Part shown: in pieces, positions 27,335-32,300 of the stretch | How the letters are laid out: each line of letters opens with the position of its first letter | Position numbering within the stretch: the stretch's first letter is position 1 | Source: an uncultured archaeon | GTDB lineage: Archaea; Thermoplasmatota; Thermoplasmata; Thermoplasmatales; Thermoplasmataceae | Direction: 5' to 3' | Assembly: GCA_000965745.1 (NCBI GenBank) | Contig: CP009479.1 | Location: 1,600,001-1,664,000 of the forward strand | Length of the DNA: 64,000 bases | The notes under the pieces: model-generated | The model's input: the letters and a program-made list of their open reading frames with translations, nothing else | Databases searched by the model: none | Told to the model about the DNA's origin: nothing | Made by a program: the position numbers and the translations under genes

Positions 27335-27889
27335 CTACTCCAGCAGCCCTATGAGTTCGTCAGCTTCCTGGCGCGTCAGTTCCTTCATGTCCTTGCTAAG
27401 GGTCTGGTTAAGGAAGCGATCTGTAACTGCCCTCCTTTCCTCAGTATTCTGAAGCTCGTTCAGCACTTCGATCTGGTCTATGGTCATGGGGGCATCCAGC
27501 TTTTCCCCCTCGCTCGGGGGCCTCATTGACTTCAGGACAGCTATGAGTTCAGATGCCTCGCTGGAGGAAAGAGAATTTATGGATCTCTTATCCCTCACCT
27601 TAAGGAAGTAGTTCGTATAGTCCCTTCTCTGGGGAGTGTCCTGCAGCTGGTCAATAAAGATCAGTTGTTTTGGTGTCAGATATCTGTCGATCAGAACCTT
27701 TGCTGAAACTCTCTTCAATTCATCTATCAATTGCGACGCCTCCTTCATCGAGAGCCCCTCAATTTCCTCTTTCCCGGTTTTCAGAAGGTACTCACTCACA
27801 TGATCCTTTGCTGCCAGTGACTCTTTCGCAAGCGTGGATATAATGTCGATCTGCCCGTCTGTTGGCGCCATTCTTTTTACCATAACCAT
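27335..27889 (-). CDS. hypothetical protein with three ~60-aa helical repeats
   Basis: T..Q...I..L...L(S/T)..EA..LI..L occurs three times. Confidence 0.75.
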   Translation of the reverse strand: MVMVKRMAPTDGQIDIISTLAKESLAAKDHVSEYLLKTGKEEIEGLSMKEASQLIDELKRVSAKVLIDRYLTPKQLIFIDQLQDTPQRRDYTNYFLKVRDKRSINSLSSSEASELIAVLKSMRPPSEGEKLDAPMTIDQIEVLNELQNTEERRAVTDRFLNQTLSKDMKELTRQEADELIGLLE

Positions 27890-28147
27890 CTAAACCCCCC
27901 CTTTGGCACATATTGTGGCAGGCATCACACTTGACGATCAGAACATGAATATCCCGATCCTTCCGCATGGACTGCTGCCATGTTAATCATGGATATGCAA
28001 CTATTCTACCTTTACCGCTCAATAAGTAGGTATGGGGTGAGGGTGGCCTGATCTTAACAGGAACGCGCAAGTATTTTATACAGTCAGTTAATCGGCAGGG
28101 AGTGTCATGGTTTGCCATGACAGATTAGCCATCGGGTGAAGGAAGAA

Positions 28148-28216
28148 ATGTTGACCTTGGTATTGCATGAAGTACTTTTGTTGAACGAGTCAACGCTCTC
28201 ACCCGTGGTTCTGTAA
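28148..28216 (+). CDS. putative leu operon leader peptide MLTLVLHEVLLLNESTLSPVVL
   Basis: 8 Leu and 4 Val in 22 aa; GGGTGA SD at 28134-28139; ends 21 nt before the leuA start. Confidence 0.6.
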   Translation: MLTLVLHEVLLLNESTLSPVVL

Positions 28217-28237
28217 AGAGAATTTTTGGGTGATAGT

Positions 28238-29473
28238 GTGTTTTCTGAAAGTGATAGTGTAAACTATGTTTTATCGAAGGGGCCGGTTCAGAACGTATTC
28301 CGTACGGGTGAATTCCACGACTGGGGGATGGACCTTAAGGATGTGGCAGGGAGGATCAAAATTCTTGACACGACCCTGAGGGATGGCGAGCAGTCTCCCG
28401 GGGTTTCAATATCCGTTCATGAGAAGATCAGAATCGCCAGCCTTCTTGAAAGTGCAGGGGTAGACGTTATAGAAGCAGGCTTTCCCATTGCGTCGGATGC
28501 TGAGAAACATGCAGTTTCCCAGATAAACTCGGTCATCAGCAAATCCGAGGTGTGCGGTCTTGCTAGATGCACAGGGAAAGATATTGAGGCTGTAATGGGA
28601 ACAGGTGTGAAGAGGGTGCATCTTTTCATCGCCACTTCTGACATTCACATGAGGCATAAGCTGAAGATGGACAGAAGCCAGGTTATTGAAAGCATATCAA
28701 AGTCTGTTGACTCTGTTGCATCCAGGGGCGTAAAAGTGGAATTTTCCTGCGAAGACGCAACAAGATCAAATATGGATTTTCTCAAGGAAGCTTTCAAGAC
28801 GGCAAGGGACAGTGGTGCATCAGTCCTCAATATACCAGACACCGTTGGGGCCCTCTCTCCAACGGCCATGATGCATATCGTGAAAGAAATAAGGGGCGCG
28901 ACTTCCACGGAGATAAGCGTCCATTGCCACAATGACTTTGGACTTGCAACCGCAAACACCCTCTTCGGCATAATGGGCGGTGCAACACAGGCTCACGTAA
29001 CCGTAAACGGCATCGGAGAAAGAGCTGGAAACGCATCACTGGAAGAGGTAGTCGTGGGAATCGAGTCATTCCTGTCATCAGGCACCGGCATGAGCAAGGA
29101 GAAGCTCTGGGAACTCTCGAAGGAAGTTTCATCCGTAACGGGCATGGCAGTTCAGCAGAACAAGGCAATTGTAGGTGAGAACGCGTATGCCCACGAGGCC
29201 GGAATACACGTTCATGGGATTGTGAACGAGGTGTCCACCTATGAGCCCATAGATCCTGCGGTGGTTGGAACCGAACGCAGGATAGTTGTTGGGAAGCATT
29301 CCGGGGTAAACTCGATCCGTTGGATTATGGAACGCAATGGAATAGAAGCTGACCTGGAGACTGCCAGGGAAATTCTCCGGGAAGTGAAAAAGATCCGTGA
29401 AGGTGGAACAAGAGTGGACGAGGAAAAAGTTGTCGAAATGTTCCAGGAATACACTAAGATAGGAGGAAACTGA
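28238..29473 (+). CDS. leuA: 2-isopropylmalate synthase (short form, no regulatory domain)
   Basis: DTTLRDGEQSPG, HCHND, GERAGN and HEAGIH motifs; GTG start after GGGTGA. Homocitrate synthase is not excluded. Confidence 0.8.
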   Translation: MFSESDSVNYVLSKGPVQNVFRTGEFHDWGMDLKDVAGRIKILDTTLRDGEQSPGVSISVHEKIRIASLLESAGVDVIEAGFPIASDAEKHAVSQINSVISKSEVCGLARCTGKDIEAVMGTGVKRVHLFIATSDIHMRHKLKMDRSQVIESISKSVDSVASRGVKVEFSCEDATRSNMDFLKEAFKTARDSGASVLNIPDTVGALSPTAMMHIVKEIRGATSTEISVHCHNDFGLATANTLFGIMGGATQAHVTVNGIGERAGNASLEEVVVGIESFLSSGTGMSKEKLWELSKEVSSVTGMAVQQNKAIVGENAYAHEAGIHVHGIVNEVSTYEPIDPAVVGTERRIVVGKHSGVNSIRWIMERNGIEADLETAREILREVKKIREGGTRVDEEKVVEMFQEYTKIGGN

Positions 29474-29474
29474 A

Positions 29475-30755
29475 ATGGGTGATCGTATGGTTCAAACAGG
29501 AAAAACGGCAGTAGAAAAAGTGTTTTCGAAAAAATCGGGGAGAGATGTCAGGGCAGGGAGCATCATAGAGGCGGAAGTTGACTATGTAATGGTGAATGAC
29601 ATAACAGGCCCACCGGCAATGGATGCATTTTCACAGCTGGGAGTGGAGCCTAAAAAGGATAAAATTGTGCTGATACCCGATCATTTTGTCCCGAGCAAGG
29701 ATATAGCCTCTGCCACGCAGTCAAAGAAAATGCGTGATTTTGCATGGAAATATGAGATGCCAAATTATTTTGAAGTCGGCAGGGGCGGAGTGTGCCACCA
29801 GGTAATGATGGAGAAGGGTTTTGCCACTCCCGGTGCTCTCATAGCCGGGGCGGATTCCCACACCTGCACCTATGGGGGACTTGGAGCAATATCCGTGGGG
29901 ATCGGGAGCACAGAAGCAGGCGTAATTTTCGGAACCGGAAAAATGTGGTTCAAGGTGCCCGAAACTGTGAGGTTCGATATAGATGGCCCACTAGATGAAT
30001 CAGTCGAAGGGAAGGACGTGATTCTCAGTGTCATTTCACGCATAGGCCTTGAGGGCGGCAGGTACAAATGTCTCGAGTACCGGGGCTCAGCAATTCAGCA
30101 GCTGGGAATATCTGACAGGATGACCATTGCGAACATGTCATCCGAAGCAGGCGCTAAGTGTGCCTTCATACCTCCTGACCGAAAAACGGAAGCTTATCTG
30201 GAGGGAAGGGCAAGGAACAGTTGGGAATTCATGGATTCCGACATGGATGCAACATACGAACAGATAATTCGCATAGATGCATCAGAGCTCGAACCTGTGG
30301 TATCAATGCCCGGGTCCCCCGCAAATGTGAAGCCTGTATCTGAAGTTGACAGTGAAATAGACCAGGCTTACATCGGGTCATGCACCAACGGCAGGATAGA
30401 GGATATAAGAAGGGCAGCAGCGGTACTGAAGGGCAGGAAAGTACACCCGAGAACAAGGTTGATTGTTGTCCCTTCCAGCCAGCAGGTATTTGAGGATGCA
30501 GTATCGGAAGGGCTTGTAAAGATAATATCTGAAGCAGGAGGGTATGTCTCGGGGCCTACCTGCGGTGCATGCCTCGGAGGTTACATGGGCGTACTCGGCC
30601 CCGGTGAGAAATGCATATCGAGCACGAACAGGAATTTTCTGGGAAGGATGGGGGACAAGGACTCAAGCGTCTATCTCTCTAATCCTTCTGTCGTTGCTGC
30701 AAGTGCAGTTGCAGGCAGGATAATCTCCCCCTCGGAGGTGCTCAAGGTTGCCTGA
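29475..30755 (+). CDS. leuC: 3-isopropylmalate dehydratase large subunit
   Basis: DSHTCT, GSCTN, CGACLG and NRNF.GR motifs. Confidence 0.9.
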   Translation: MGDRMVQTGKTAVEKVFSKKSGRDVRAGSIIEAEVDYVMVNDITGPPAMDAFSQLGVEPKKDKIVLIPDHFVPSKDIASATQSKKMRDFAWKYEMPNYFEVGRGGVCHQVMMEKGFATPGALIAGADSHTCTYGGLGAISVGIGSTEAGVIFGTGKMWFKVPETVRFDIDGPLDESVEGKDVILSVISRIGLEGGRYKCLEYRGSAIQQLGISDRMTIANMSSEAGAKCAFIPPDRKTEAYLEGRARNSWEFMDSDMDATYEQIIRIDASELEPVVSMPGSPANVKPVSEVDSEIDQAYIGSCTNGRIEDIRRAAAVLKGRKVHPRTRLIVVPSSQQVFEDAVSEGLVKIISEAGGYVSGPTCGACLGGYMGVLGPGEKCISSTNRNFLGRMGDKDSSVYLSNPSVVAASAVAGRIISPSEVLKVA

Positions 30756-31251
30756 ACACAGAATTAGGGGAAAAGTCTGGATTCTTGGCGACAACGTCGA
30801 CACTGACCAGATCATACCGGCGAGGTACCTGGTAACTGCAGAGCCCGAAAAACTTGCGCCACACTTCATGGAAAATACGATCCCGGGTCTTGCATCGTCC
30901 ATATCCCGCGGCGACATAATTGTAGCCGGCAGGAATTTTGGGTGTGGCTCAAGCAGGGAACATGCCGTGAGGGCCATTCAGGGGTGTGGCGTCAGCCTGG
31001 TAATTGCTAAGAGCTTTGCACGGATATTCTTCAGAAATTCCATTAACCTGGGGCTTCCGGTTATTGAAGCTGATATATCTGTTGTTGAAGGGGCTGAAGT
31101 ATCCGTTGACATGGAAAAAGGGACCATTGCGCATGGTCCGGAAACGACTAAGTTCGAGAAATACCCGGAATTCCTGAAAAAGATAGTGGATAGTGGGAGC
31201 ATCATAAACTATGCCAAGGAGGAGTTGTTACGCCAGCAGTCGCAGTCATAG
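30748..31251 (+). CDS. leuD: 3-isopropylmalate dehydratase small subunit
   Basis: DTDQIIPARYL and NFGCGSSREHA motifs. Confidence 0.9.
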   Translation: MPEHRIRGKVWILGDNVDTDQIIPARYLVTAEPEKLAPHFMENTIPGLASSISRGDIIVAGRNFGCGSSREHAVRAIQGCGVSLVIAKSFARIFFRNSINLGLPVIEADISVVEGAEVSVDMEKGTIAHGPETTKFEKYPEFLKKIVDSGSIINYAKEELLRQQSQS

Positions 31252-32300
31252 AGGGGGACGGGATTGGCCGTGAGGTGATACCGGCAGCAACTGAATGCAT
31301 AGATCACATCACAGGCGGATCGATTGAATATGTGAAATACGGAGCATCTTCTGAGAGGTATATCCGGGAAAGCACTCTGATAACGGAAAATGAAATGGAA
31401 GAGCTCAGAAAAATGGATGCAATTTTATTCGGGGCGATCGGGGACCCGAGGGTGAAACCCGGAATAATGGAAAGAGGTGTAATTCTCAGGCTAAGAAGAG
31501 AACTTGGCCTTTTTCTGAACCTGCGCCCCGCAAGGTCCCTGCCTTTTTCCAAATTTGACATGAATATTGCCATTGCAAGGGAAAACACTGAAGAGTTTTA
31601 CATGGGTTTCGGGGGAAAGATTGACGAAGGCGGGTCGAAATTCCTGCATAGAAGCAATGCATGGTCCGGTGAGCTAGAAGTTTCAGGCAGTTCTGACGAC
31701 GATTTGTACTTCAATCTCGGGGTAATGAGCAGAAAAAACCTGGAAAGATTTTTCAGAAAGGCCCTGTCATTCAAGCAAGCAAATGAGGGCAAGGGTGTAA
31801 CTGTAGTGGACAAGGCAAATGCTGTAACCGGCCTTTACGAGATCTGGAGGGAAGTGGCCGGAGAAGAACTTGCAAAAGCTGGCATAAAGCCTCATTTCAT
31901 GTATGGGGATGCAGTCGCATATGATCTTGTCATGGACCCTTCAAAATTTGGACTCATCATGGCTTCCAACCTCTATGGGGATATCCTGTCAGATCTCTGT
32001 GCTGGTATGATCGGTGGCCTGGGATTTGCCCCAAGTGGAAGCTATGGACTGGGGAAAGTGGCACTTTTTGAGCCTGTACATGGAAGCGCTCCCGATATCG
32101 CGGGAAGAGGCATAGCCAACCCCATTGGCGCCATACTGTCAGGGGCCATGATGCTGGACCATCTTGGTATGAAGGAGAAGGGCCAGGCCCTGGAGGAGGC
32201 AGTCGGATTAGCTGTGCAGGACGGAGTAATGACCCATGACATAGGTGGAAGTGACGGCACGAAGAGAGTGGTTGCATCGGTCGTGAAACATCTTCCATAA
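31230..32300 (+). CDS. leuB: 3-isopropylmalate dehydrogenase
   Basis: VAVIEGDGIGREV, NLYGDILSD and EPVHGSAPDIAG motifs. The conserved N-terminus extends upstream of the ORF-track start to ACG at 31230. Confidence 0.85.
   Translation, partial: TPAVAVIEGDGIGREVIPAATECIDHITGGSIEYVKYGASSERYIRESTLITENEMEELRKMDAILFGAIGDPRVKPGIMERGVILRLRRELGLFLNLRPARSLPFSKFDMNIAIARENTEEFYMGFGGKIDEGGSKFLHRSNAWSGELEVSGSSDDDLYFNLGVMSRKNLERFFRKALSFKQANEGKGVTVVDKANAVTGLYEIWREVAGEELAKAGIKPHFMYGDAVAYDLVMDPSKFGLIMASNLYGDILSDLCAGMIGGLGFAPSGSYGLGKVALFEPVHGSAPDIAGRGIANPIGAILSGAMMLDHLGMKEKGQALEEAVGLAVQDGVMTHDIGGSDGTKRVVASVVKHLP

Follow-up and report, generated by a model that had tools for sequence, protein, structure and literature searches.

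Attenuation is a textbook mode of gene control in bacteria. The leuA locus of an uncultured archaeon of the Thermoplasmataceae raises the question of whether a ribosome on a short leader peptide may serve as a leucine sensor in archaea as well. The locus lies in a stretch of 64,000 nucleotides (the window; contig CP009479.1, positions 1,600,001 to 1,664,000), and the coordinates of the leu locus given below are those of the window. The original prediction, made from this DNA alone, described a leucine-rich leader peptide in front of leuA together with an RNA switch that hides the Shine-Dalgarno (SD) sequence either of the leader or of leuA. It sought the relatives of the host in the Thermoplasmatales, which is correct: the family is Thermoplasmataceae and includes Ferroplasma, Picrophilus and Thermogymnomonas acidicola. 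Its central idea of translational attenuation gains support from the conservation of the element. The leuA leader is real and conserved, and it is very probably regulatory; the regulation itself we infer.

The leu operon and its leader

The genes leuA (28238–29473), leuC (29475–30755), leuD (30748–31251) and leuB (31275–32300) are all located on the plus strand. The leuA gene starts with GTG and encodes a 2-isopropylmalate synthase (IPMS)-type enzyme. According to family matches, leuC and leuD encode the large subunit of the isopropylmalate dehydratase/homoaconitase family and the small subunit, respectively, and leuB, the start codon of which is uncertain, a protein of the isopropylmalate dehydrogenase family. 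The NCBIfam IPMS models score best for LeuA, yet below their cut-offs, and its top PDB matches are IPMS enzymes; relatives of LeuA are homocitrate or homoaconitate synthases according to some sources. In the genomes G098 and G011 the ilvBNC genes adjoin the leu operon. LeuA is a candidate IPMS rather than a homocitrate synthase, and leucine is the likely product of the leuA–leuC–leuD–leuB pathway. The C-terminal allosteric domain PF08502 was searched for in LeuA and was not found. Since LeuA is devoid of the usual leucine-binding feedback domain, the pathway may be restrained mainly by control of how much enzyme is made. The N-terminal extension of LeuA comprises approximately 35 residues (28238–28350), and its first codons are unusually conserved as DNA. 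A small hairpin at leuA codons ~6–10 is predicted in most of the relatives.

The archaeal promoter of the operon contains a TATA box at 28074–28081 on the plus strand, which is found at the same place in the genome G002 and in the metagenomic loci L100 and L104. Its spacing equals the TATA-to-AUG distance of leaderless relatives, and calibration on these relatives gives G28104 as the predicted transcription start. This position is upstream of the leader start codon at 28148. The perfect hairpin originally placed at the likely 5′ end of the RNA is borne out: the 8-bp repeat at 28103–28122 is perfect, and the hairpin would extend from the predicted start to 28121 (28104–28121, plus strand). It is present in all six leaders of the same type (see below), and the three substitutions in its stem among the relatives all lead to G–U pairs, as expected of an RNA. 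The motif ATCGG (28091–28095), located between the TATA box and the predicted start, is found in five of these six loci. Further upstream, a 26-nt imperfect inverted repeat (28005–28030), which is retained in G002 and L100, separates the leu promoter from a divergent gene; it may be the site of a regulator or the promoter of that gene. The divergent gene (27335–27889, minus strand) encodes a protein of 184 aa that contains internal repeats and matches no Pfam or NCBIfam family; G002 contains a homolog at the equivalent place, and L100 a 184-aa gene.

The leader open reading frame (uORF) comprises 22 codons on the plus strand (28148–28216), starting with ATG at 28148 and ending with TAA at 28216, and is preceded by its own SD, GGGTGA (28134–28139). 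These coordinates and the composition of eight Leu codons, five of them TTG, and four Val codons had been given correctly from the start. Leucine accounts for 27% of the leader codons versus 9% genome-wide. With a crude codon table, the excess of leucine (8 in 21 codons versus a genome frequency of 0.091) yields p = 3e-4, and that of TTG (5/8 of the leader Leu codons versus 7.7% of the genomic ones) p = 1e-4. Codons 10–12 (CTT TTG TTG, 28175–28183, plus strand) form a Leu run that is matched by a Leu run in all other genera. Among 200 SD-led genes of the studied genome (G000) with free upstream space, a strict scan revealed eight with a signal-led uORF ending 5–50 nt before the start codon, and of these leuA alone adds an SD-hiding hairpin and an amino acid cluster; the scan missed the ilvB and Phe/Tyr leaders described below and is a specificity check rather than a census. 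DNA sequencing contigs match the leader sequence and show related variants, the near-identical ones of which may stem from the same source DNA. A tiny ORF starting with ATG at 28107 was rejected as a leader candidate, as its length and stop vary among the relatives: it has 6 codons or 10, or else shares the reading frame of the leader.

Three segments of the plus strand make up the switch. Segment A (28121–28155), defined by constrained folds and duplexes, consists of the leader SD, its 5′ flank and an inner arm over the leader start, in which 28150–28155 pairs with 28189–28194 in the constrained folds. Segment B (28193–28213), likewise seen in folds and duplexes, is an anti-SD and the partner of either A or C. 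Segment C (28219–28239), seen in the folds, contains a U-run, the leuA SD (28228–28233) and the first bases of the GTG start codon. The alternative pairings of B with A or with the leuA SD were reproduced. The A:B duplex (28199–28213 with 28121–28139) has an energy of −23.9 kcal/mol, and the B:C duplex (28193–28213 with 28219–28239), which hides the leuA SD and has the leader stop codon in its loop, one of −22.1 kcal/mol; the shared strand makes the two mutually exclusive. The free RNA up to the start codon is predicted to fold as B:C (−42.1 kcal/mol), and forcing the SD open gives A:B (−38.3 kcal/mol). The fold of the leader region has a z-score of −2.5 versus dinucleotide shuffles. In G000 alone, A:B pairing beyond the SD complementarity is borderline (p = 0.06); the support for it comes from the relatives.

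Conservation of the leader and related leaders of other operons

A leuA ortholog at E < 1e-80 was found in 18 of the 103 genomes of the family; these 18 represent six genera including Ferroplasma, Picrophilus and Thermogymnomonas. All 18 genomes, as well as the three metagenomic loci L100, L101 and L104, possess a uORF of 15–24 codons with a Leu run, although the genomes are kin and such counts overstate their independence. In all 18 the uORF is either SD-led or leaderless with TATA spacing, and its stop codon is located 20–39 nt from the leuA start. Every leader offers segment B the choice between A:B and B:C, and in A:B the Leu codons are located within the apical loop or next to it. The original prediction was drawn from one genome; both the uORF and the helices are retained in 18 of 18. 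As judged from sequence, the leader element with its mutually exclusive helices is conserved.

The leaders fall into two types. The 22-codon type is represented by G000, G002, G098, L100, L101 and L104. All six have the 5′ hairpin, their own SD and a reading frame that stays open without indels; codons 2–10 are variable. Codons 11 and 12 encode leucine in 6/6, by different codons (TTG, TTA, CTT), and Leu17 and Leu22 are invariant in 6/6. The conserved signal is thus narrower than the Leu- and Val-rich peptide first proposed: the Leu-Leu run at codons 10–12 stands, and the other Leu and Val codons vary or belong to a helix. Leaders of the leaderless type have 16 codons in Ferroplasma, 15 in Picrophilus, 20–21 in the genus g19 and 24 in Thermogymnomonas. 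Their uORFs begin 30–31 nt from the TATA box, which suggests a leaderless start in these four genera, G000 not among them. The leader SD, originally described as hidden by the upstream pairing, is part of segment A in the 22-codon type; most genera are leaderless, and their segment A consists of the start codon and the first codons. Because the stop codon of Ferroplasma and Picrophilus aligns with Ser15 of the G000 uORF, the 22-codon type looks like an extension of the reading frame through segment B.

The covariation hoped for at the outset was observed for A:B. In Ferroplasma and Picrophilus 92% of the A:B cells are paired, with changes on both sides in four pairs and eight cells. Shuffle controls reached eight cells in 1/500 and four pairs in 14/500 trials, and slid controls were 34–53% paired; kinship inflates these control comparisons, and a single member supplied the structure. 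The B:C helix is 100% paired in the same genera, with one double change that alone is not significant (66/500). The A:B helix of G098 comprises 16 bp and is nearly perfect (p = 5e-4 for the pairing beyond that of the SD), and one position has changed jointly in A, B and C of this genome (G-C-G to U-A-U). A:B surpasses composition-matched shuffles in all eight leaderless leaders tested (p 0.0005–0.03); when the SD is kept constant, the leaders of the 22-codon type give p values from 0.0005 to 0.06. In 22/22 leaders the B:C state leaves few or no bases of the leuA SD unpaired. The energies of A:B and B:C vary together by lineage (for example −27.8/−25.4, −23.9/−22.1, −18.9/−15.8, −15.8/−14.2 and −9.0/−10.0 kcal/mol), a joint scaling as expected of a bistable switch.

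The primary sequence of the leaders differs between genera. A covariance model built from the six 22-codon leaders retrieved only its training loci and missed the Ferroplasma type, which implies that the primary sequence is not widely shared. A search for related loci in named genomes gave distant leuA genes only, and a DNA-pattern scan of JGI metagenomes for the leader gave one chance match. Upstream of four Sulfolobales leuA homologs, a gene on the same strand ends 19–40 nt before the start, which leaves no room for such a leader.

Leaders with cognate codons were also found before other amino acid operons. The ilvBNC genes of G000, G001, G002, G003, G098 and Thermogymnomonas are preceded by leaders of 23–24 codons ending in Val/Ile/Leu runs. 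The ilvB leader of G000 is located at approximately 304,280–304,400 of the genome (L129), 119–44 nt before ilvB, and further examples are L110–L113 and L116. In five g1/g16 genomes and Thermogymnomonas a conserved hairpin and then the ilvB SD come after this Val/Ile/Leu ORF. A different ilvB leader occurs in Ferroplasma, g19 and Picrophilus (L114–L127), 33–115 nt upstream of the gene; its ORF of 6–9 codons is mostly SD-led, has one Ile codon only and ends with Ile-stop inside a highly conserved 20-nt motif. Three or four His codons occur in the uORFs of the his operons of Ferroplasma, g19 and Picrophilus. These uORFs (L130, L132–L143) comprise about 47–55 codons with a His run and lie upstream of hisZ, or of hisG in Picrophilus; several end at or beyond the start of the next gene, and for G098 the region falls outside the flank examined. 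In G000 a Phe/Tyr-rich ORF of 26 codons (G000:C1:1233154-1233234, L225) ends 15 nt before a chorismate mutase gene, with a DAHP synthase gene downstream. The genus g29, from another family of the order, has SD-led leaders with long terminal Leu/Ile/Val runs before ilvB–ilvN–ilvC–leuA (L226:3758-3863 on the minus strand in oriented coordinates, and L227:2843-2948); they comprise 34 codons and are followed by pyrimidine-rich tracts. No cognate leader was seen within the 1.5-kb flanks of trpB2, argG and hom, the operon starts of which may lie farther away. The codon run matches the amino acid of each pathway, as expected if the codons are the sensor.

This last observation bears on the idea that the leader binds a leucine-responsive protein or ligand, the uORF being a by-product or a reinitiation booster of leuA. 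Binding of this kind has been proposed for the actinobacterial LEU element (PMC1262725), and the stop-to-start distances of 20–39 nt are compatible with reinitiation. However, the genera have the ORF, the identity of Leu and the helices in common despite their different primary sequences, conservation of unpaired bases is essentially confined to the Leu codons, and pathway-matched runs of His, Ile/Val/Leu and Phe/Tyr are hard to explain without codon reading. We regard this explanation as improbable, and sensing of leucine by a translating ribosome, in some form, as highly likely.

Ribosome position and the proposed mechanism

The base of the B:C helix is located 8–12 nt past the first base of the last Leu codon of the run in 22/22 leaders, and 12 nt past that of Leu12 in G000. 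The position of the leader stop varies from +6 to +33 across the same leaders. In Haloferax, 11 nt separate the 3′ edge of the ribosome from its A site (PMC7261190). With a B:C base 8–12 nt past the last Leu codon, a ribosome on the Leu run would have its front edge at the SD-hiding helix, with segment A cleared. This fixed spacing is the best evidence that the position of the ribosome is read, a conclusion drawn from leader geometry.

We propose that leuA is controlled by a ribosome-mediated, leucine-sensing translational attenuator, which is the best explanation of the leader and a likely one. When Leu-tRNA is ample, ribosomes would start on the leader again and again and leave it quickly, so that A is often occupied; B would refold locally with C after each passage, and the leuA SD would stay hidden. 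When Leu-tRNA is scarce, a ribosome would dwell on the Leu run with A left behind it and its leading edge at the B:C base. Upon such a stall B would exchange C for A, and the leuA SD would be freed. The A:B helix would also hide the start of the leader itself, and this would hold the ON state. If the leuA mRNA is left untranslated, transcription farther downstream could be lost as a secondary effect.

The mean cost of opening the leuA SD was calculated for 17 leaders under four settings of ribosome-constrained folding; the folds are at equilibrium and ignore the bulk of the ribosome, helicase action and co-transcriptional timing. The cost was 2.3–3.6 kcal/mol without a ribosome and 8.0–10.2 kcal/mol with a ribosome on the leader start, where it was higher in 15–17 of the 17 leaders. 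That an occupied leader start would close the leuA SD is a robust outcome of the model. At the most favorable Leu codon the cost was 3.5–4.1 kcal/mol, a value biased low by the choice of the minimum; averaged over the Leu run it was 5.2–6.1 kcal/mol. A modeled ribosome at the stop codon likewise opens the SD (2.7–4.0 kcal/mol). In G000 a modeled ribosome at Leu10 leaves the SD open (2.5–3.9 kcal/mol), and one at Leu11 or Leu12 closes it (5.5–13 kcal/mol). In Ferroplasma the SD is opened only by a ribosome at the first Leu of the run; G098 and G021 follow the stalling model. These results are mixed, and the Leu run does not stand out as the ON position in the equilibrium folds. The original prediction held that the stall site of the ON state could not be told by eye, and the ribosome-constrained folds did not point to one codon either.

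A variant of the proposed mechanism dispenses with the exchange: a ribosome on B alone would free the SD, at Leu17 or Leu22 in G000 and at the last Leu or the stop codon elsewhere, and A:B would do no more than set the resting state. Leu17 and Leu22 are indeed invariant in the 22-codon leaders, the lowest opening costs in G000 are obtained with the ribosome at codons 15–21, and mycobacterial polycysteine leaders offer a precedent (bioRxiv 10.1101/834739). However, both Leu codons are located within B and are invariant at the nucleotide level, which structure explains, and the leaders of Ferroplasma and Picrophilus end before B, with no Leu codon within it. A ribosome on codons 17–20 of G098 closes the SD under the looser footprint, and one at Leu22 or the stop codon would be so close to the leuA start (approximately 21 nt) that it may obstruct this start. 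We consider this variant rather unlikely. The exact exchange of C for A around a stalled ribosome has in our judgment a little less than an even chance. Pairing of A with B around the ribosome must fit sterically, and the short leader of Ferroplasma leaves little space for it; in some cases the Leu codons are partly paired in A:B, where structure alone could hold them. In the actinobacterial LEU element, mutation of the Leu codons reportedly left the regulation unchanged (PMC1262725), which means that such architectures may not work as they look.

The stall might instead act on transcription, deciding whether RNA polymerase terminates at the U-run before the leuA SD, by intrinsic oligo-U termination or through aCPSF1/FttA, with SD pairing being secondary. 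All leaders but one have a run of four to seven U between the leader stop and the SD, and archaeal terminators are not known to need a hairpin. A precedent comes from Saccharolobus, where promoter-proximal complexes recruit aCPSF1 and a link of this factor to premature termination has been described (PMC8448881). Thermogymnomonas, however, still has both helices without a U-run, no bacterial-type terminator of a GC stem with a U-tail was found at the leader, and leaders of the 22-codon type have their U-run base-paired within B:C, which is presumed to be the OFF state. In 22/22 leaders the SD forms the 3′ arm of the helix. Termination as the main output is thus unlikely in our view, and the output is probably exerted mainly through the leuA SD.

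Frameshifting at a hungry codon, which would take the ribosome to or into leuA at a Phe-Leu or Leu-Leu step, was also considered. Most leaders contain a Leu codon directly after a slippery TTT-T or CTT-T. This context is missing in Picrophilus and Thermogymnomonas, the uORF-to-leuA frame is 0, 1 or 2 depending on the genome, and the stops in the +1 frame are located at −57 to +10 or are missing. As neither the frames nor the shifted stops are conserved, frameshift sensing was rejected and is regarded as extremely unlikely.

Beyond the leu operon, a wider scheme can be put forward tentatively. The Thermoplasmatales may possess ribosome-read sensors at several operons (Leu, Ile/Val, His and Phe/Tyr). 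In the leu operon the stalled ribosome would sit in the loop of the activating helix, the 5′ arm of which is the leader initiation site, so that the ON state would free leuA and at the same time shut leader initiation.

Comparison with known systems

According to a paper of 2021, archaea have no known mechanism of transcription attenuation or antitermination (PMC8448881). No archaeal case of leader-peptide control was found in the open literature, a search in which subscription journals are mostly outside the coverage. The trp leader of Methanothermobacter contains a Met-Trp mini-ORF, and stem-loops have been suggested for the trp genes of Thermococcus; we know of no proof of attenuation for either. 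The leuA leader appears to be a leader-peptide attenuator with translational output in a domain where such control is apparently unreported. The leaders are short (approximately 100–140 nt) and occur in cultured Ferroplasma, Picrophilus and Thermogymnomonas acidicola, which makes control by hungry-codon stalling directly testable in archaea. They also bear on the use of leaderless initiation and on transcription-translation coupling in this domain.

The leader resembles the enterobacterial leuL (RF00512, Leu_leader) in having a short ORF with cognate codons before leuA, alternative helices and sister leaders, which in enterobacteria belong to ilv, his and phe. An Rfam search of the leader region gave one chance hit, and the genome contains no match to RF00512. 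Unlike leuL, the archaeal leader has no terminator hairpin with a U-tail, and its effector helix hides the SD. The Leu run is located between the two arms of the alternative helix and not upstream of a helix, and the leader is transcribed from an archaeal promoter and mostly has a leaderless start. In translational attenuators of the ermC/cat type, a stalled ribosome rearranges helices and exposes the downstream ribosome binding site, and antibiotics are sensed via the nascent peptide. The archaeal leader would likewise free a downstream ribosome binding site through a leader-stalled ribosome; in contrast to these attenuators, its peptide shows little conservation between genera except in the Leu run.

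The mycobacterial polycysteine leaders also have a leaderless small ORF at the transcript's 5′ end and occur at several loci per genome, and stalling on their cognate codons has been proposed to free a downstream SD (bioRxiv 10.1101/834739). Their Cys codons pair with the SD region, whereas the archaeal leader uses a separate segment B, 8–12 nt past the last Leu codon, that has a competing upstream partner. The actinobacterial LEU element has in common with the archaeal leader a uORF with Leu codons upstream of leuA, sequestration of the SD and no terminator (PMC1262725). In the LEU element the Leu run pairs with the SD and a pseudoknot is formed, whereas the archaeal SD pairs with B in 22/22 pseudoknot-free folds; no sequence relation between the two is evident. 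The archaeal leuA leader is thus closest to the polycysteine leaders and the LEU element, yet it is built without the pairings that define them.
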